IMG/VR virus record: IMGVR_UViG_2974555739_000001
Coordinates: 16,149-80,148 of that record
Length of the DNA stretch: 64,000 nucleotides
Direction: 5' to 3' (one strand)
Source of the DNA: a virus
Taxonomy: Duplodnaviria > Caudoviricetes
Under the pieces are notes generated by a model, which saw only the letters and a program-made list of their open reading frames with translations, had not been told where the DNA came from and ran no database searches. A program made the translations under genes and the position numbers. This document shows positions 15,301 to 55,790 of the stretch, piece by piece (position 1 is the first letter of the stretch; each line of letters opens with the position of its first letter).

Positions 15301-18300
15301 GCTAAAGGTCAAGTTAAGAGCATGGATGAATTGATGGAGCTTTCAGGTAAACTAGCTGATGGTACTGCTACTAATGAAGAGAAAAAACGTGCTCAATATC
15401 TTCTTACACAACAGGCAACATACGAAAATACTCGTGTGGCCCAACAAGAAGCAAACAAAGTAGCTAAAGCGAAACAACAAGAAGCTAAAGAGCATAACTA
15501 TACAGCTGGTCAAGCATTCCAGGCTAGTATTAAAACGAATAAAGCTTCTTCTAGTATTTCATCTACGACTACTCAAAAGATGGGTATTGTCAGAGGTGAG
15601 TTAAATACAACTGGAACTAAACACGCTGAACATGCTAAATCAGCTCAAGATTCATCTAAGAAAGTACAATTAGCTGGTAGTGAAATGTTCAAAGCTTCTA
15701 AACGAGATTTCAGTAAAACACGAGATCAAGTTGACCAAACAAAGAAAGAATACAACAAGTTAGAAGATGAAGCTAAAAACATTCCTAAAGGTATCGCTAA
15801 AGGTATCATTAATGCTATCGCTGATCCTGAAAAAGCTATTGCTAAATTAGCTGAAAGTCTTGTTAAGAAATTTAAAAAGGCTTTAGGAATCAAGTCACCT
15901 TCTAGGGTATTTATGGCTTTAGGTGGACACGTTATCGACGGTTTAGTAAATGGTTTAGATGTTGATAACTTGAAATCATTAGGTCAGAACGCATTTAAAG
16001 ATTTCGCTGATGGAGCTTTCAACTCAATGGATCAGATTAAAATGTTCCTAAGTGGTGGCGGCCCTGGAAACTTTAAGAATCCTGGTGGCGGTGGAGCTGG
16101 TTGGAGATCGATGATTTATGCTGCTGCTGCTCAAATGGGTCAATCGGTCAGTGAATCAGAGGTAAATGGAATAATTGCCCAAATAAATAGGGAATCCGGA
16201 GGAAACCAAAACATCACTCAAAGTAGTGCTGTATGGGACGTTAATACTGCTGCTGGAAACCCAGCTAGAGGACTTTTGCAGTATATTCCTCAAACATTTA
16301 ATGCGTATAAAGTCCCAGGATATAATTCTATCTACAACGGATATCACCAACTTTTGGCCTTCTTTAATAACAAAACTTGGAGACGTGATTTGCCCTATGG
16401 ACGAAGAGGATGGGGGCCAAGGGGCGGTACATTCTTTGCAAACGGCGGTATAACAGGCTCTATCTATCAACAGGCCGAAAGTAACGGATTTGTGCCAAAT
16501 GGAGGATTTATCAATAAACCTCATTTTGTAGATGGTGGACGTGGTATTGCAGGTGAAGCAGGAGCAGAAGCTATCATTCCTTTGTCTAACATGCGTAGAA
16601 GTCGTGCTTTAGACCTATATTCACAAGTTGGAAATATCTTAGGAGTTCACGCTTATGCTAATGGTGGAGTAACTAAGAAGACAACAACGAAAGCTAAACA
16701 ACCTCCTGCTGCTTGGTATACTGTTCAATCAGGTAATACTTTAGCTGGTATTGCTAAGTTGTTCGGAACTTCAGTTAAGTATTTACAAAGCATTAACAAA
16801 GGTTTAGCTAAGACATCTAAGGATAAAAAACTTACAGAAAACATGAAAGTATCCGTTAAAGGTTTAATTACTAATGATGGTTCTTATCGTGCAAATGACC
16901 TTCTTGATCCACAACGTAAGAAAGCCGGTTATGTTCAAGCTGAAAATGGTAGTTGGGTAAAGAAAACAGCAACGAAAGCTCCTGCTAAGAAACCAACAAC
17001 ACCAGCTAAACCACCAGCAAAAACATACGCAACTAAATACGGTCATGTAACAGCTATTGAAGGCGATTATAGCGAAATGATGTCAACAATCGGATACTTG
17101 CAAAATAACGGTATCTATAACGATTCTCAAGCATTATACGCTATGAAGTCTCAAGTTCGTCCTCAAACTAGAGGAACGCAAGATCGTCGTGCTTACAATG
17201 ATGCTCAAATCGATATTATTTCTAAAATGGATAACGTTAAGAAAGCTTCAGAATGGTTCAGAAGCGCTAACCTTTTCTTATCAGGTGACGATTGGAAGAA
17301 AGCGTACAATCAAACTATGGAAATGGTTAAGGCTAATGCAGAAGCAAAAGCTCAAGCTGAAAATGATTCTAAGTTAGCTAACCGTCAAGCGACTTTATCT
17401 CGTGAGCAAACACTTGGATTAGCAACAGCTTCTCGTACTTCATCTTACCTACGTGGAAACATTCGCGCTTACTCTAAGACTGATGAACAGAAGTTAGCAT
17501 ACAACACGGCTCAAATGGACGTATTTAAAGGAATGGAAAACCTTAAAACGTTTGGTCAATGGTTCGATCAAGCTAAGTTGTTCGGTACTGCTGCTGAAAT
17601 CAAACAAATCAAGGAAAACTTAACTGAAATCGTTCGAGATAATGCAATCGCTGGTGTTACAAATGCTACTAATGCATGGTTTGACACTTTCAGTAAACGT
17701 ACTCCTGAAGTCATCAAGAACCTGGAAAGAACAGTAAATACGATTGATTCAATCAAAACAGCTCAAGAAGATGCAGTATTGAATAGCAAGATTGATTCTT
17801 ATATTGCTGATCGTCAAGCTGCTTTAGGTTTTGATAACCGTACTGACATTGAGAAAAAGCAATCGAAAATGGATTCTGTTAAGAGTCAAATCGATGCAGC
17901 TATTCAGCAAAACGCTGAACTCAAATTCAAAACTGATTCTTCAGACATTGATGCTAGATTGAAACAACTACAAGCTGATAAGGATAAGTTGAATCAAGGG
18001 ATGAAAGAAACAAGTGCTTACGGAAAATCGAAAGGTTTATCTGATAAGGACATCAATGATTCTCTTCAACTTTACAAAGATCAACTTGCAGCTATTCAAG
18101 AAGAAACAACTAAGCTGATCCAGCAGAAGAAAGATTCTGTTGATATGTTCAACGCGAACGAAACAGCTATTGGTTCTTTAACTGAAGAATATAAGAAATT
18201 AGAACGTGAAATGCAAGAAACGCAACGTCAAGCTGATATCCTTCAGAAGATCAAAGATAAAGTTAATTCTATTTTTGATTGGGATACAAGTAATGTGCTG

Positions 18301-31023: not shown

Positions 31024-31173
31024 TCACTCCTGGACTTCAAAATAATAATTATTGGCGGCTACATAAAAGCCATTTACAAATGCTGTATATAAATCAAATG
31101 GATTTTGAACTGTTGTTACAGCTAGTAATCCATTAAGATAACCACGTTTGAAAGCAATCATATCATGCATCAT
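31024..31173 (-). CDS. 49-aa hypothetical protein (MMHDMIAFKRGYLNG...)
   Basis: Manual translation; ATGA overlap with the sigma-factor stop; fills the gap to thyA. Confidence 0.5.
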   Translation of the reverse strand: MMHDMIAFKRGYLNGLLAVTTVQNPFDLYTAFVNGFYVAANNYYFEVQE

Positions 31174-31871
31174 ATTGCCACTCTCCCAAAATGAGCTTCA
31201 GCAAAAGGTTTGATTCTTCTTTTGATAATACGGCCCACTTGAACTTGACTAATGCCTAAACCTTCAGCTATTTCCCTTTGTCCCTTTTCTAACAAAAGTT
31301 GCTCCACTATGTAACGTTCTCTAGGTTGCAGCTTGTCCATAAAATCTTGAGCAATAACATGAGTGTAATCTTCGTCTGTACGCACAAAGTAATCAAATGT
31401 ATCACCGAAAGTATCATCTTCATCAATGAGTTTGTTTGTACTAGTTATAGTGAAGTTCTTGTTTAAAGCAACTGCATCCATAACTTCTTTTTCAGACAAA
31501 CCAACATCTTTCATGATTTCCTTTACGTCTTTTTCGAAAGAGCTTTCACGATTAATCAACGAAAAATGTTCTCTTACGTGACGTGGAAAGCGAATTGATG
31601 TTGTGCGTTCTCTAGCCCAATGCAACCATTCACCTACCATGATCTTGACAGCATAAGTAGAGAATTTGTATTCGCTGAATTTAATCGGATCATACTTAGC
31701 GCAAGCTGTTAATAATCCCATTGAAACAACTTGTTCAATGTCTTCCTTTGAATAATTTGTTTGATTTTCGTTCTTCATCCAGTAACCAGCTAACTTATCA
31801 TTCATAACGAAGCCGATTAAACCTGAATTTTCCGCGAATAAAGCGTTTCTTTCCTCAATAGTTCTTAACAT
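31170..31871 (-). CDS. Sigma-70 family factor, SigF/SigG-like
   Basis: EDIEQVVSMGLL.A..K.DP...KFSTYAV..M.GE region 2; region 4 QREIAEGLGISQVQVGRI. Confidence 0.88.
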   Translation of the reverse strand: MLRTIEERNALFAENSGLIGFVMNDKLAGYWMKNENQTNYSKEDIEQVVSMGLLTACAKYDPIKFSEYKFSTYAVKIMVGEWLHWARERTTSIRFPRHVREHFSLINRESSFEKDVKEIMKDVGLSEKEVMDAVALNKNFTITSTNKLIDEDDTFGDTFDYFVRTDEDYTHVIAQDFMDKLQPRERYIVEQLLLEKGQREIAEGLGISQVQVGRIIKRRIKPFAEAHFGRVAI

Positions 31872-48516: not shown

Positions 48517-48657
48517 ATGATTAAATTCATTATTGGTTCATTCGTTGGCTTTAGTGTAGGTTTTGGTATGGCTTTATCTTACCTTGTTGAAGCTTCTGAT
48601 TCATCAATGTTAATTAAAACAATTTCTATCGTGAAGGGAGTGCTTGAAGCGTTATGA
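48517..48657 (+). CDS. 46-aa membrane peptide (MIKFIIGSFVGFSVGFGMAL...)
   Basis: GGGAGG RBS; ATGA overlap with the ATPase start. Confidence 0.65.
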   Translation: MIKFIIGSFVGFSVGFGMALSYLVEASDSSMLIKTISIVKGVLEAL

Positions 48658-51146
48658 AAATAACATTAAATTCCAGGGAAAATAAACCATTAGATAATCC
48701 TCAAATGGTCATGAAGAAGAAATTAACATTGGGATCACCTCAAAACGATCCCCTACTTCTTCCTGTTGCTGTTGAACCTAAGTTACCAATAGTTAGACCT
48801 TCTACGGATGTAAACGTCAATGTGCGCCAATTTGAAAAGCCTGAAGCTAAACAGAAGAAAAAGTTAACTTTACCATCCTTTAATTTTCAACTAGCCGAAC
48901 CGATGAACACAACTTTTTCTGTAAAGCCTGTTCCTACAACAGATAACGAAAAGATAAACGTATTCATAGAAGCTTTCGCAAATACTTACAAAGAATTTTT
49001 TAATCAAGTCCGGAATTTCTCGTACGGTGAAGATGGTTTGTCTATACCTCAACAGGATAAAATTTTCATGGAAACAGTTATAGACAACAAAAAGGTGCAA
49101 CAATTCATTACAACCAATGAGCACCAGGAAGAATATGTAGAGCAGCAAATAGGATTTACATGGTACAAAGCTCAAGTATTAAAGCAGCATAAAGAAGTTA
49201 TTGATTTCGATGTGGATAAGTCAATTATTTATGAATTCACACTGAAATTCACACCGGCCCTAACATTAAAACCACATGAAAAGCTGTCAGATAAGATGTT
49301 ACGTGATTTCCTTGAGCTTAGTAAATTGTTCAGGGATGATGAAAAAGCGCTGATCCAGTTTGGATTTCAACCATCAGAAAACGATTGGTATAAAGAAGGG
49401 AACGTTCAACTGAAGGACTTACCAACTAAAATCAAGAAGAGTGAGTACAGTACTAACAAGATGGGATATTCAGCGTTTGATTGTTGCTTGAGACTAATTG
49501 TTCAAAGTAACGATAAAATACGCTTAGAAACGATATCACGCGGTCTAGTTAGTACGTTGAAACGGTTAGAACATGACAATGAACTTATTGCCAAACAGAT
49601 AAAACCAAAAAGAGCCAAACAATTCTACAAACGTAAGGTATTGGGCCGCAAAGTAGATGTTCCTTTATCATTCAGAAAGCGGTTCATTTTAACGAACAAG
49701 GAAATAGCACACTTTATCGTACTTCCTAACCGATCACTTCAGAAAGATTATCACCTGGAAGTAGATGAAAAAGGTGTGACGGCTGTTGATCCGTCTTTAT
49801 TAGGAAAGAAAGGCATTTGGTTAGGTAACGGTAAAGTTAAAGGGAATGATGTTGCGGTTAAAATACCTGTTGATAATTTAGATCATCTTTGTGGAGCTTA
49901 CGCATTCATCGGTTCTAAACGTATGGGTAAAGATGTATCTTGTGCTAGGTTCATCATAGAAAACGCTAAACAAGGTCATGGTGCTATTATAGGTGATTGT
50001 ATTGATGAAGCAGGAAGGGGATTAGCTGATTTGATTAGGCAAAACCTACCTGAAAATAAAGTGATAGATGTTGATTTGTGCGATACTGAAAATCCTATTT
50101 ACTTTGGACTTGACGATGTAATTGAATCTATAGGTAGTGGTGGTATTGATGTTATTTCTAATGATTTAGTTCAAATTTTAGACCTGGATAAGAACTATAC
50201 ATCAAAGCAGCTTGCTCGTCTTGTGGCAAAGGCATGTAAATGTAACCTTTATAATATGATGGTTTTCCTAAAGTCAGATAAAATAGCTAGAGAATTTCAA
50301 CAGAAAATCAAAGATGAAGGTAACGACATATTAGCTTTACAACTTGAACATGAGTATTTTGAAGCTAATCATTCATCAGCAGTTAAAGGAGCTGTAATTA
50401 ACCGTTTGGATGAAATGATGAATATGTCCATTATGAAGAATTTATTCGCTTGTCCTAGAAACAAAAAATTCGATCTCCAAAAATTTATCCAGCAGAACAA
50501 AGTAGTTCTGATTCGTATGAAGAAGACCGGTGGTTTCGGTGAAATGGGAACACGAGTAATTATGAATCTTCTGTTATTAAAAATATTTTGGTTGAAGAAA
50601 ATCAAAAAGACAGACAATGTTACTTTCACTGTATTTAACGAATTTCATCAATATGATACCGAACCATTCAATCGCACTTTATCGGATATGTTATTAGAAT
50701 CAGCGAAGTACAGATTAGGAACGTGTCTTGTATTCCATACACCCGAAAAAATAAATAGGATGTTATGGGAAACTATCCAGGCCGCTTCTACAAATTTCTT
50801 CATGTTCAAAAATACAAACCTTAACGTTTATCGTTCGTTGGTGGATCAGTTAAAACCATTTGATTTAGACGCTTGTTTCAAAACAAAAAAACACGAAAGT
50901 ATATATTTACCCTTCGTGAATGGAAAGCAGTTAGAGCCTATATTTATGAAAATGTTACCTACTGACAGATTAGATCACACTTATGATAGTGAAAAACATA
51001 CAGCTCTTTATGGTACACCCTTACATTTAGTCGAGAAGAAAGTTTACGAAACTGAATTAAGAATGTACCAAAAAGAAGAACTTGAAGAAAAAGAAGAAAA
51101 AACTGAAGAAAAACCGAAAAAATCCAAAAAATCGAAGAAAAGTTGA
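48654..51146 (+). CDS. VirD4/TraG/HerA-like P-loop ATPase with degenerate Walker motifs
   Basis: AFIGSKRMGKD at Walker A position; FTVFNEFHQ at Walker B position; ESAKYRLGTCLVFH corresponds to E.RK..L.l.la.Q. Confidence 0.65.
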   Translation: MKITLNSRENKPLDNPQMVMKKKLTLGSPQNDPLLLPVAVEPKLPIVRPSTDVNVNVRQFEKPEAKQKKKLTLPSFNFQLAEPMNTTFSVKPVPTTDNEKINVFIEAFANTYKEFFNQVRNFSYGEDGLSIPQQDKIFMETVIDNKKVQQFITTNEHQEEYVEQQIGFTWYKAQVLKQHKEVIDFDVDKSIIYEFTLKFTPALTLKPHEKLSDKMLRDFLELSKLFRDDEKALIQFGFQPSENDWYKEGNVQLKDLPTKIKKSEYSTNKMGYSAFDCCLRLIVQSNDKIRLETISRGLVSTLKRLEHDNELIAKQIKPKRAKQFYKRKVLGRKVDVPLSFRKRFILTNKEIAHFIVLPNRSLQKDYHLEVDEKGVTAVDPSLLGKKGIWLGNGKVKGNDVAVKIPVDNLDHLCGAYAFIGSKRMGKDVSCARFIIENAKQGHGAIIGDCIDEAGRGLADLIRQNLPENKVIDVDLCDTENPIYFGLDDVIESIGSGGIDVISNDLVQILDLDKNYTSKQLARLVAKACKCNLYNMMVFLKSDKIAREFQQKIKDEGNDILALQLEHEYFEANHSSAVKGAVINRLDEMMNMSIMKNLFACPRNKKFDLQKFIQQNKVVLIRMKKTGGFGEMGTRVIMNLLLLKIFWLKKIKKTDNVTFTVFNEFHQYDTEPFNRTLSDMLLESAKYRLGTCLVFHTPEKINRMLWETIQAASTNFFMFKNTNLNVYRSLVDQLKPFDLDACFKTKKHESIYLPFVNGKQLEPIFMKMLPTDRLDHTYDSEKHTALYGTPLHLVEKKVYETELRMYQKEELEEKEEKTEEKPKKSKKSKKS

Positions 51147-51290: not shown

Positions 51291-51863
51291 TTATACTACG
51301 TGTTTCCAGGTCTTGCGATTAACAATTTGTTTAATAGTGCTAGGTCTAACATCAAACATATTAGCTAAAGAATACGAATTGTATAATTTATCTCTCGCTT
51401 TGAAATGTTTTCTTATAAAACGAACATCATCTTCATTTAATTTTGTGTTTATGTTATCTGATCCATAATGAATAGGTGGTTTCAATCCTCTATTTTTGTT
51501 AGAAGCAAGACCAGTTTTAAAAGCATGTTTCATATTTTCACTTCTTGTAGACCATTCTAAATTTGAATGTTCATTGTTTTCTTTTTTTCCATCAATGTGA
51601 TTCACTTCTTTTCTGTTGATCGGATCATCGTTCTTAATAAATGAAAAAGCAACCAATCGATGTATTGCATGATTTTTTCTGATTTGTTCTTTGTTCGTTA
51701 AAGTAATCATATGGTATCCATAACTATTTACTTTAGGTTTCATGATACGACTTTTATAAGTTTTTCCTTTTATGACCCTAGTTAAACTTCGGATACGTCC
51801 GTAATCACTAACTTGATAATATCCTTCGTATCCTTCTATATCCTTCCAAATTTCATTCTCCAT
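51291..51863 (-). CDS. NUMOD4-HNH homing endonuclease
   Basis: EIWKDIEGYEGYYQVSDYGRIRS; HRLVA..F; VNHIDG.K.NN...NLEW; C-terminal HTH. Confidence 0.92.
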   Translation of the reverse strand: MENEIWKDIEGYEGYYQVSDYGRIRSLTRVIKGKTYKSRIMKPKVNSYGYHMITLTNKEQIRKNHAIHRLVAFSFIKNDDPINRKEVNHIDGKKENNEHSNLEWSTRSENMKHAFKTGLASNKNRGLKPPIHYGSDNINTKLNEDDVRFIRKHFKARDKLYNSYSLANMFDVRPSTIKQIVNRKTWKHVV

Positions 51864-51925
51864 TCCGATCACCTCTATTATCATCATACCCCTGTAAATG
51901 TTTTTTATACACAAAAAAAGACGGA

Positions 51926-52963: not shown

Positions 52964-52991
52964 AAAAAAAGCACCGGATCAGCACCGGCGC
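52964..52991 (-). terminator. Rho-independent terminator
   Basis: GCGCCGG-TGCTGAT-CCGGTGC-TTTTTTT on the minus strand. Confidence 0.75.
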
Positions 52992-53000
52992 GATTGTTAG

Positions 53001-54851
53001 TTATAGATAAAGCTTTAATGTTCCTTGCAGCTTATCAATCTTATCATGAAGCATTTTAACTTCTTCTTGATGAAGTCGTTCAGCAGCATCAGCTTTTTCT
53101 AAAACGTTATCTAAATTCTTGCTCATTTCTTTGTTATGTTTAGCTATGATATCATTAGCTTCTTCAAATGCATCAAGTGTTTTCTGCTTGTTATCATTGC
53201 ATTCGTAAGCTTCTTCCAGCTCTTGTTTGTAAGAAAGAATAGCAGCTTCTAATTGATTAGCACGTTGCAATTCATCTTCATACAAACGTTTAAACTCATG
53301 CGCTTCACTTTCATAGCGATCACGTTCTTGAGAAACGTTGTCAAAATCATGTAATGTCTGTTCATATTTTTCGTTAATAGCAAAATGAGCAGCTTCGACT
53401 TCTCTTCTTTGCTTTAACACACGCTCATATGATTCATTGCGATTGTTGTAATCTTCTTCCAAATTAGTGTATCGCGCTGTTAATGAATCTAATTCTTTTT
53501 GTAAAAGTTGAGCTTTATCGACAATAGAATCACGTTCTGAAACCACTTGAGCAAATTGATCTTTTACATACTTAACGTTGCTATCTTTATGTTTGATGGA
53601 AGTTTGCAGCTGATTAATAACTGATTCTTTTTCCAATACTTTGTTTTCCCATGTTGTATTTAAAGTAGCAACAGCTTCTTCAAAACCTTCACGTTGTTGA
53701 TCCATTTGTTTCTGAATCCGTTTGATCTCCTGGTCACGAGAAGAAACTTGCGATTTATAGCTTTCAACTGTTTGCTCAAGATCAGTGATAACCTTGTCCA
53801 ATTTACTAACTTGTGAAGCTGATGTAGACGGTTTAATAGCAGTAGCCATCATATCTTTTGAATCCCCCTGTTGTTTCTTCTTAGTTGATACACCTTTGCG
53901 TTGATTTGAAATAACAGCGCTTTTAGTTGTATCAGTTAAACCATTTTCTTTCTTCCAACCATAATAAGAAGCGTTATTGAGTCTGAAGAATTTCATGATC
54001 TTACCGTTTGATTTACCTTCGTTACGCATTTTGTGATAAATTTCAACAGTCAATCCATTCAAAGGTTTTTTAGCGTTAAACATAGTAACAACACTCTCCT
54101 GTTTTTTAATATTTTTAGGACTAGGTTTTCTAACTACTTGTGCTCTCTCTTTCACTACGTTGTCGAATTGACCTTGACCTTTTAAATAATTTTCTAGCAG
54201 CGGTTTAACTTTGTTTTTGATAATACGCGAAACCTGGACTTGAGTAACGCCAATCAATTCACCAATTTCATTTTGCGTTTTACCATCCATCACAAGTTTG
54301 ACCACATTGACAGTACGTTCATCCAATGTTTCCAGGAACTCTTTTACAAAAGTATGGGAGTAATCGTCGAAATCACCAACTTGATCCGCTAGGGTAATGG
54401 GATCACCGTCATTTTCGTAAACAGTTTGTTCAATGAAAGCAGGATTTCGTACCTTCAAATAATATAATAACTCGTCTACTTCCGATAAGTCAAGCTCTAA
54501 TTTTTCAGCAATTTCTTCACGCTTCAATCCTTCGCATTCATTCATACGAAACTTAGCGGCCCATTCTTTCAAACGTCTAGGTGATTTAATAATACCATCA
54601 TCACGAATAAAACGTTGGATTTCACCGATCATCATAGGAACAGCGTAAGTTGACCACTTCACTTTAAAAGAATCGTCAAACTTATCGAAAGCTTTCAAAT
54701 AGCCAATAGAAGCTAATTGAAACAAATCATTGTTATCATAACCGCGATTCTGAAAACGATATACAACTGACCATATGAGCCTTAAATTACGTTGAACATG
54801 GTCATCCCTGTTTTCTAACACACCTTCAATCATTGTTTCAGTCTTATACAA
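53001..54851 (-). CDS. SigF/SigG-like sigma factor fused to an HTH and a long coiled coil
   Basis: N-terminal ~225 aa: DLFQLASIGYLKAFDKFD, WSTYAVPMMIGEIQRFIRDD, TQNEIGELIGVTQVQVSRI; then HTH-like segment and ~270 aa of heptads. Confidence 0.8.
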   Translation of the reverse strand: MYKTETMIEGVLENRDDHVQRNLRLIWSVVYRFQNRGYDNNDLFQLASIGYLKAFDKFDDSFKVKWSTYAVPMMIGEIQRFIRDDGIIKSPRRLKEWAAKFRMNECEGLKREEIAEKLELDLSEVDELLYYLKVRNPAFIEQTVYENDGDPITLADQVGDFDDYSHTFVKEFLETLDERTVNVVKLVMDGKTQNEIGELIGVTQVQVSRIIKNKVKPLLENYLKGQGQFDNVVKERAQVVRKPSPKNIKKQESVVTMFNAKKPLNGLTVEIYHKMRNEGKSNGKIMKFFRLNNASYYGWKKENGLTDTTKSAVISNQRKGVSTKKKQQGDSKDMMATAIKPSTSASQVSKLDKVITDLEQTVESYKSQVSSRDQEIKRIQKQMDQQREGFEEAVATLNTTWENKVLEKESVINQLQTSIKHKDSNVKYVKDQFAQVVSERDSIVDKAQLLQKELDSLTARYTNLEEDYNNRNESYERVLKQRREVEAAHFAINEKYEQTLHDFDNVSQERDRYESEAHEFKRLYEDELQRANQLEAAILSYKQELEEAYECNDNKQKTLDAFEEANDIIAKHNKEMSKNLDNVLEKADAAERLHQEEVKMLHDKIDKLQGTLKLYL

Positions 54852-54879: not shown

Positions 54880-55251
54880 CTATTCTTGTTCCATTTCATT
54901 AACCAACAGCTTAGATACGAATTTAACTACACCGCCGGTAAAATCAGCTACGATTTCCAGTGACATAATGTGTTTACTTCCAAACGATCCTAGCTTGTAC
55001 AATGAAATGGTACGATTAAATTTATTGTCCGGATTGTCAGAAGTTTTAAGTATGTAGCCTAGACGTTGAAACTCTTCCATTGATCCGCAACCACTAACCA
55101 AAATCAATTGCTGGTAACTATTTTCCACAACTTCATTGTACTTCTGATGAATCAATTCAAACATTTTCGTGTAGTTAACCTTATCTGATGTTGCAGCATC
55201 AGCATTAAGAGCTTTCACACGCTTGTAATTAACAACGTATTCTTCTTCCAT
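54880..55251 (-). CDS. Hypothetical protein
   Basis: 123-aa ORF with AGGGGG RBS. Confidence 0.55.
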   Translation of the reverse strand: MEEEYVVNYKRVKALNADAATSDKVNYTKMFELIHQKYNEVVENSYQQLILVSGCGSMEEFQRLGYILKTSDNPDNKFNRTISLYKLGSFGSKHIMSLEIVADFTGGVVKFVSKLLVNEMEQE

Positions 55252-55254
55252 AAC

Positions 55255-55485
55255 CTATAACCCCCTGATAATTTTAAATGCATTCAAGACGTATTCTTGA
55301 TGTAATTCCTGTTCTAGCGTGTACCACCCTATAACTTTGTGGCAAGTCTTACCTTTATTTAACCAAACATTTCCTAATTCGTCAACAATAATATTATATC
55401 CTAATGAATCAGCGTACATTTCGCAACTTTCTTTCACACGCTTTAAATCGTCATCTAAACCTGCTGTCAATTTACTTCCAAACAT
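55255..55485 (-). CDS. Hypothetical protein
   Basis: GAGGTG RBS; ORF track 55255..55494. Confidence 0.55.
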   Translation of the reverse strand: MFGSKLTAGLDDDLKRVKESCEMYADSLGYNIIVDELGNVWLNKGKTCHKVIGWYTLEQELHQEYVLNAFKIIRGL

Positions 55486-55539
55486 GATTTCCACCTCTTT
55501 TTAAAATTTGTTGTATCAAAACTGAATAACAAGGGAACA

Positions 55540-55790
55540 GTTAAATAATAATTAAATAATATATATAATTAAATATAATTTATAATTAAATATAATTAAC
55601 ATTTCTATTTATATTATAATTAAAATATAATTAACAGTTCAAGTAAATATAGTTCTTTATTAACAATTAAATATAATTAATAATTATTTATAACTAACAA
55701 TTAAAACACTAATAACAATTAGCCTTAACCAACAAGAATCTTTATTTAATAATTAACAATAACTAATAACAAATATAAAAACATTATCGA
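55540..55790. repeat. Extremely AT-rich tract of TATAATTAA-type repeats (candidate replication origin)
   Basis: Noncoding; many TAATTAA/ATAATTAA copies; lies at a minus-to-plus strand switch. Confidence 0.6.

Follow-up and report, generated by a model that had tools for sequence, protein, structure and literature searches.

A SigF-like phage sigma factor continuous with a helix-turn-helix and a long coiled coil, with a conserved candidate start at the join

The window analyzed here (64,000 nucleotides, positions 16,149 to 80,148 of the IMG/VR virus record IMGVR_UViG_2974555739_000001, Caudoviricetes) contains on its minus strand, at 53001-54851, a gene whose product begins as a sigma factor and continues into a helix-turn-helix (HTH) and a coiled coil (Table 1). 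We give a probability of about one half to the reading that a phage sigma factor has here been covalently joined to an accessory HTH and coiled-coil module which relatives encode as a separate, coupled gene, and that the resulting protein is dimeric and makes an extra DNA contact. The observations directly in support are the architecture of the protein, the purifying selection acting on it, the homology of its HTH to that of stand-alone partner proteins, and the adjacency of the genes of these partners to sigma genes.

The gene is a single uninterrupted open reading frame (ORF) of 616 aa, with a TTG start, a GGGGG Shine-Dalgarno (SD) sequence 7 nt 5' of it, a TAA stop and no internal stops. 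Residues 1-616 align on positions 1-600 of PHROG 21612, a phage family called "RNA polymerase sigma factor" (E=0, 1263 bits). The initial annotation, which described a SigF/G-like domain running without a stop into an HTH-like segment and heptads, was therefore correct in seeing one intact frame. On sequence grounds, the sigma part belongs to group 3 of the sigma-70 family (SigB/SigF/SigG subfamily). Its residues 9-217 cover nearly the whole of the SigF, SigG, and SigB/F/G models (E 1e-42 to 3e-58), aligning positions 10-226 of 231 in TIGR02885 (SigF; E 4.5e-54) and positions 4-223 of 227 in TIGR02980 (E 1e-49). Region 2, which serves core binding and -10 recognition, is recognized by PF04542 (E 1.7e-12, 47.4 bits for a cutoff of 24) and presents the motif STYAVPMMIGEIQRFIRDDG, nearly identical to that of SigF in PDB 1L0O; the Pfam model of region 4 scores 22.4 bits, slightly below its cutoff of 24.1. 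The best solved relative is the Geobacillus SigF from the complex with SpoIIAB (PDB 1L0O_C, E 2.8e-52), and Foldseek searches with the sigma model retrieved exclusively sigma chains of holoenzymes. The scores stay under the curated equivalog cutoffs of both SigF (TIGR02885, 183.7 bits for 321) and SigG (TIGR02850, 142.5 bits for 457), so the sigma part must be considered SigF-like and not an ortholog of the host SigF. The 390 aa that follow it depart from the single-module layout of SigF, which has about 250 aa and is controlled by SpoIIAB and SpoIIAA. The premise that sporulation sigma factors are single modules of this size holds for those of the hosts but not for phage SigF-like sigmas, which are often long (405-514 aa).

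In the AlphaFold2 prediction of the whole protein, the confident sigma domains are followed by a disordered segment (221-261), a three-helix unit (269-302), a second disordered segment (308-350), and long helices. The helices of the HTH (269-277, 282-288, and 293-302) are predicted with a local confidence score (pLDDT) of 80-89, or 83-89 when the tail is folded alone, and the unit carries the motif LTVEIY..G.S...I......N...Y.WKKENGL. Pfam has no direct match on aa 263-306; homologs of this HTH (P0025, P0026, and P0031) match HTH_23 at E 2e-13 to 2e-23. The Foldseek matches of the tail HTH are HTHs of resolvases and LuxR, all with E above 1. Compared with PDB sequences and folds, the tail gave weak coiled-coil or HTH matches, none of them significant, and its leads in the ESM Atlas were all below 0.9. 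What had been described as an "HTH-like segment" can be specified as a confidently predicted three-helix unit, homologous to the HTH_23/HTH_28-type units of other phage proteins. The proposed coiled coil of about 270 aa also stands, as its heptads are constant, with a best register unchanged over approximately aa 393-588 and G389 as the sole proline or glycine between P341 and G610. When aa 257-616 are folded alone, residues 345-615 form one unbroken helix of 271 residues with pLDDT up to 96. From these models, the coiled coil should oligomerize.

Over this region, the nucleotide sequence is 86-92% identical to those of Slash, Staley, and Stills, siphophages of Bacillus megaterium in the genus Slashvirus, and the source virus record (80,148 bp) carries direct terminal repeats. 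The same fusion is annotated as a single coding sequence in Staley (616 aa, 90% identity), Slash (598 aa, 71-73%), and Stills (618 aa, 70-74%), and a metagenome contig of 80.8 kb carries it as well (614 aa, 62%). The sigmas of the three named phages are orthologs with the same fused architecture and gene neighborhood (70-90% identity), without any difference in kind. Altogether, five full-length genes retain the fusion, as does one contig-truncated copy that is open across the join, at 59-90% identity. In the comparison of assembled metagenome contigs, relatives from three metagenomes also span the join without indels. A tail-only protein of 365 aa (P0006) was considered as a split form and rejected, since its contig ends within the gene and the frame extends back into sigma region 4 without a stop. 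Sigma, HTH, and coil evolve under purifying selection (ratios of non-synonymous to synonymous substitution rates, dN/dS, in Table 1), but linker 2 (aa 307-347) is close to neutrality (0.6-1.5), as would be expected of folded and useful domains connected by a free linker. Among the Slashvirus orthologs, the last third of the coil has a mosaic structure, with indels of 14-21 residues. The tethering of the sigma to an HTH and a coiled coil is therefore real and conserved among close homologs, and there is no hidden stop: a sequencing error, one of the reservations attached to the initial annotation, is refuted by the fused frame annotated in Staley, Slash, and Stills and present on the metagenome contig, together with the purifying selection.

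The evidence for a separately encoded partner comes from an exhaustive HMMER search with aa 245-616 over 1.8 billion representative sequences, which retrieved, orthologs aside, seven proteins. Three are tandem arrays of an HTH unit of about 45 residues (consensus LTxExYxxxKxxGxSDxxIxxxxxxxxxxxxxWKKxNGL) that match HTH_23/HTH_28 at E 1e-13 to 1e-23 and align to positions 265-310 of PHROG 21612. Three others (P0027, P0029, and P0030) have one or two HTH units followed by a coiled coil, and the seventh (P0028), a repeat-rich coiled-coil match, was set aside. A second search added two further stand-alone HTH and coil proteins, P0032 and P0033. Comparing the Slashvirus tails with these five stand-alone proteins by hhalign, the HTH aligns with a probability of 97.9% (E 4e-13).

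In all four contigs where the genomic context is available, a sigma gene lies directly 5' of the gene for the stand-alone protein. One of these is a prophage of Sporosarcina highlanderae (L007), in which the pair is located between ERF/DnaB/SSB genes and terminase genes, and the other three (L008, L009, and L010) are contigs of metagenomic origin. The genes of a pair share 4 nt in three contigs, in L010 a gap of 6 nt lies between them, and the SD of the partner (GGAGGGAG) lies inside the last sigma codons, an arrangement that resembles the AGGAG and ATG found at M257 of the fused gene. Like the fusion, the split pairs combine a sigma that best matches the SigB/F/G model with the same HTH and a coil at the C terminus, here in the downstream protein, and are located between replication and packaging modules; they differ in being two genes and in having shorter coils that cannot be confidently aligned. 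P0033 (255 aa) displays a short lead, one HTH, and a coil, which is the layout of the putative M257-616 product. Three of the four split partners have in addition a Cys-rich N-terminal region of about 100 aa and a second HTH; this Cys-rich region is absent from P0033, P0030, and the fused tail. Searching GTDB genomes with the alignment of the partners returned the Sporosarcina prophage and one fusion of the HTH with DUF3310 only, and the same search in IMG/VR gave no matches. The suggestion that homologs should be compared for split and fused genes thus received a double answer: the close homologs are all fused, whereas in another lineage a related HTH and coil protein is separate, although coupled to a sigma gene. 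As the related tail is a separate gene beside a sigma there, the fusion can be read as a sigma welded to its own helper.

Several observations weigh against this reading. The coils taken alone reach only 9% in hhalign and show no detectable sequence ancestry, so that only the HTH can be called homologous, the coil being a shared layout. The sigmas of the split pairs share only 25-33% identity with the sigma part of the fusion, and their partners form one family (47-71% identity), so that they represent a single independent lineage instead of four. The HTH module is mobile and also occurs in arrays and in a DUF3310-like fusion without an adjacent sigma. Consensus promoters of the host SigF and SigG types occur zero times and once in the window, as expected from shuffled sequences, and synonymous-site conservation is not especially high at the internal start.

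The DUF3310-like case is an ORF of a Planococcaceae metagenome-assembled genome (L012, 1462-2082), located in a phage-like region, in which the same HTH unit precedes a DUF3310-like domain at the C terminus; this fusion indicates that the HTH is a shuffled phage module. No recognizable sigma is adjacent to the genes of the HTH arrays P0031 and gp19 of PM1, nor is there one near the array on L019; the contig of P0025 is too short for its gene neighborhood to be read. The gp19 array, from Bacillus phage PM1 (L016, NC_020883.1, 2980-4074), bears the RefSeq name "RNA polymerase sigma factor"; its sequence is an array of 364 aa with about seven HTH units and no evident sigma core, and its label was probably carried over from the tail of PHROG 21612.

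Under the reading of a sigma joined by flexible lysine-rich linkers to its accessory module, we infer a role of the tail in transcription. The sigma part would bind the host core RNA polymerase (RNAP) and read SigF/G-like or phage-specific promoters, the coiled coil would render the protein at least dimeric, and the tethered HTH could add a DNA contact, or avidity and local concentration, by which a weak phage sigma would compete for promoters. A comparable solution, in logic and not in ancestry, is Gp27 of phage SPO1, a self-associating helper that binds DNA through a Lys-rich disordered region, attaches to RNAP, and enables a weak sigma of the phage to compete with SigA (PMC13401047). Gp27 differs in being a separate protein of 155 aa on the beta subunit, whereas the attachment of the fusion to RNAP would occur via its own sigma. 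The window also encodes a second sigma of ordinary length (233 aa, 31170-31871, minus strand), likewise SigB/F/G-like (TIGR02980 E 1e-29). It shares 30% identity with the sigma part of the fusion, and its presence beside the fusion suggests a two-sigma cascade.

The join itself displays a further feature. The AGGAG reported 12 nt before an in-frame ATG at 54083 is present in the window, and the segment AAACAGGAGAGTGTTGTT is invariant in 6/6 sequences. The ATG follows at 12 nt in the window, Staley, Stills, and L004 and at 9 nt in Slash and L005, so the SD and ATG have been retained although an indel separates the two groups. Within the window, in-frame internal AGGAG-N5-13-ATG sites number three in 18,031 ORF codons, that of M257 included, and the CAG and GAG codons used at the internal SD are minority codons (23% and 12%). 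This site may be an internal translation start or a remnant of where the partner gene once began, and, as it is conserved at the join in each of the six sequences, a second product containing only the tail (M257-616) is plausible. In our scheme, M257 would be the old start of the partner gene and may still give a free HTH and coil protein pairing with the full-length form. That the two forms pair via the coil, and that their ratio sets the number of sigma heads per DNA-bound dimer, as a timer or gain control, is a tentative extension in which we place rather little confidence. Just before the AGGAG there is a run of six A, to which the addition of one A would give a sigma of 258 aa with a TAA overlapping the ATG (ATGTTTAA). 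A metatranscriptome contig of a relative (run X11, depth 8, about 87% identical) has one extra base in this run, at window position 54101, and represents either a natural split variant or an error. Programmed frameshifting at the run was considered and dropped, because a proper slippery heptamer is lacking and Stills has an interrupted run.

Other phages carry long SigF-like sigmas: Eldridge (506 aa), Moonbeam (514 aa), P59 (443 aa), and Emery (405 aa). The sigma parts of the first three are homologous to that of the fusion (42-48% identity), and their C-terminal extensions also open with an HTH-like segment; unlike the fusion, these tails have no coiled coil and end in another conserved domain (...FRFNVGS). 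Homology between the HTH of the fusion and that of the Moonbeam-type extension was not supported (hhalign 2%). The gene before these myophage sigmas encodes an extended sigma of 353 aa in Eldridge and Moonbeam and a hypothetical protein in P59. A strong SD with an ATG is located just 5' of the tail HTH in Eldridge_0172 and P59_168, and the Moonbeam gene has none at usable spacing before its HTH. If the proposed pairing of two forms is true, the presence of the SD and ATG at the join in Eldridge and P59 too would make it a general and undescribed mode of running Bacillus phage sigmas. The induction of ELDg169 of Eldridge in B. subtilis turned on more than 400 sporulation genes and lowered spore yield by 99% (PMC9429907). 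ELDg169 is probably the GenBank "SigF" of Eldridge (506 aa, with the long tail), may correspond to Eldridge_0172, and may have been cloned at full length; C-terminal extensions and Slashvirus phages are not mentioned in that study (Schwartz, Lehmkuhl and Lennon, 2022; PMC9429907).

Among the alternatives, the tail could restrain the sigma, either in cis as an anti-sigma or autoinhibitory module or through a free M257-616 acting as a dominant-negative partner, a possibility that we regard as unlikely. Genes coupled 3' of sigma genes very often encode anti-sigma factors, and the split partners, just 3' of their sigma genes and overlapping them, have the classic sigma/anti-sigma arrangement, three of them with the Cys-rich N-terminal region. 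Fused C-terminal domains that modulate activity are also known in other sigma-70 family proteins, ECF41 and ECF42; these differ in belonging to group 4, lacking region 3, and having SnoaL-like or TPR extensions, where the present case is of group 3 with an HTH and a coiled coil. The Cys-rich region is, however, precisely what the fused tail, P0033, and P0030 lack. The tail contains a single Cys and no H-x3-C-x2-C anti-sigma motif, no anti-sigma family in Pfam, NCBIfam, or PHROGs matches the fusion, and the conserved part of the tail is an HTH of the DNA-binding type. Moreover, a permanent inhibitor without an obvious release signal fits poorly with the strong purifying selection on the sigma.

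Similarly improbable, in our view, is that the sigma is a mimic of SigF that derails sporulation, with a tail serving localization or sequestration (at the nucleoid, septum, or phage compartment) and not promoter recognition. Regions 2.4 and 4.2 are about 50% identical to those of genuine SigF, the SigF/G-type promoters are not enriched in the window, as seen above, and the chromosome-anchoring proteins RacA and KfrA likewise have a coiled coil after an HTH. Nevertheless, no homology of the tail to RacA, KfrA, or DivIVA was found, and the second sigma of ordinary length points to a phage transcription cascade. In addition, phage SigF/G-like sigmas lower spore yield and seem non-essential in lytic growth (PMC9429907), in line with a role as mimics.

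The least probable explanation, to which we give very little credit, is a recent accident in which a base was lost from the A-run and the fusion is tolerated and adds nothing, the SD and ATG being a fossil: the restored junction would be typical of coupled genes, the SD lies inside the last sigma codons as in the split pairs, and the metatranscriptome contig carries exactly the extra base required, but that single contig of depth 8 may be in error, the fused frame is kept at synonymous divergences (dS) of 0.4-1.0 in the five full-length genes and in the truncated copy, including Stills with its interrupted run, and some of these genes should have reverted or decayed if the fusion were only tolerated.

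The gene itself is not new, since its sequence and the name "sigma factor" are already in GenBank and PHROG 21612. To our knowledge, no group-3 sigma permanently tethered to a dimerizing DNA-binding module has been described, and a fusion of a sigma with an HTH and a coiled coil did not appear in the literature that we searched. As far as we found, what is new in print is the reading of the gene as a phage sigma of group 3 joined to a partner encoded elsewhere by a separate, coupled gene, with a conserved start at the weld. The published genome notes mention "two sigma factors" and nothing further (PMC4541283 and PMC4541274), the former being that of phage Stahl, 85.6% identical to Slash and 84% to Staley. 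The window, a Slashvirus genome, most likely comes from Stahl or from a phage nearly identical to it. Phage SigF/G-like sigmas reprogram sporulating hosts and yet have so far been treated as ordinary sigmas of 250 residues. The fusion described here, together with the tails of Eldridge, Moonbeam, P59, and Emery, indicates that an additional DNA-binding domain, with an oligomerizing or other tail, is present in many of them. The occurrence of split and fused pairs predicts a physical sigma-partner system, which would bear on how weak phage sigmas win over the host SigA and on whether such genes yield two products.

Table 1. Positions of the features discussed, in window coordinates unless another genome or contig is named.
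Feature	Position	Strand	Basis or remark
Sigma-HTH-coiled-coil fusion gene, 616 aa	53001..54851	-	ORF call; phrog_21612 over full length
aa 1-225, complete group-3 sigma (regions 2, 3, 4), SigF/SigG/SigB-like	54177..54851	-	pLDDT 80-90; dN/dS 0.14-0.22
aa 226-262, Lys-rich disordered linker 1, holds the internal start region	54066..54176	-	pLDDT <50
aa 263-306, three-helix HTH, HTH_23/HTH_28-like	53934..54065	-	AlphaFold2; hhalign; dN/dS 0.11-0.31
aa 307-344, basic disordered linker 2, nearly neutral evolution	53820..53933	-	pLDDT <50; dN/dS 0.6-1.5
aa 345-616, coiled-coil rod of ~270 residues	53004..53819	-	heptads; single predicted helix; dN/dS 0.33-0.58
AGGAG (54100-54096) and in-frame ATG (54083-54081, M257)	54081..54100	-	conserved 6/6; rare in ORFs
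Invariant blocks in the gene	54434-54527, 54132-54221, 53742-53861	-	nucleotide alignment of five phages
Terminator-like hairpin and T-run	52971..52991	-	directly after the stop; annotated terminator in Staley, Slash, Stills
Two small co-oriented ORFs 5' of the sigma gene	54880..55494	-	same order in Staley, Slash, Stills, L005
SigA-type promoter-like site TTGAAC-18-TATAAT	55613..55642	-	consensus match only; 5' of the three-gene unit
SigF-like sigma gene with C-terminal tail, Eldridge	L013 2435-3955		
SigF-like sigma gene with C-terminal tail, Moonbeam	L017 1423-2967		
SigF-like sigma gene with C-terminal tail, P59	L018 1414-2745		
SigF-like sigma gene with C-terminal tail, Emery	L014 2471-3688		

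The two ORFs upstream of the fusion gene encode proteins of 123 aa (54880-55251, PHROG 21879) and 79 aa (55255-55494, PHROG 20781), and the fusion gene is probably the last of a three-gene unit, one operon, with them. Neither has a Pfam match or any similarity to STAS, SpoIIAB-type, or anti-sigma proteins, and the ESM Atlas has no match for that of 123 aa. The gene order, two small ORFs and then a sigma, echoes the spoIIAA-spoIIAB-sigF operon of the host. Within the fusion gene, aa 111-140, 211-240, and 331-370 correspond to blocks that are nearly invariant at the nucleotide level among the five phages (80-90%, synonymous sites included), for which an internal promoter, an RNA element, or recombination blocks may be the cause. 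A SigA-like sequence, TTGACT-18-TATTAT, is found at 54493-54464, within the first of them. SigA-type consensus matches are fewer in the window (6) than in shuffled sequences (14.8), and we therefore do not claim an internal promoter.

On the 3' side, the next gene encodes a tyrosine recombinase. It is followed by a convergent ORF of 830 aa (48654-51146, plus strand), annotated as "nucleoside triphosphate hydrolase" in relatives and without a Pfam match at E <=0.1. Between the two is a NUMOD4/HNH homing-endonuclease gene (51291-51914, minus strand), in a stretch that varies among Slash, Staley, and Stills.

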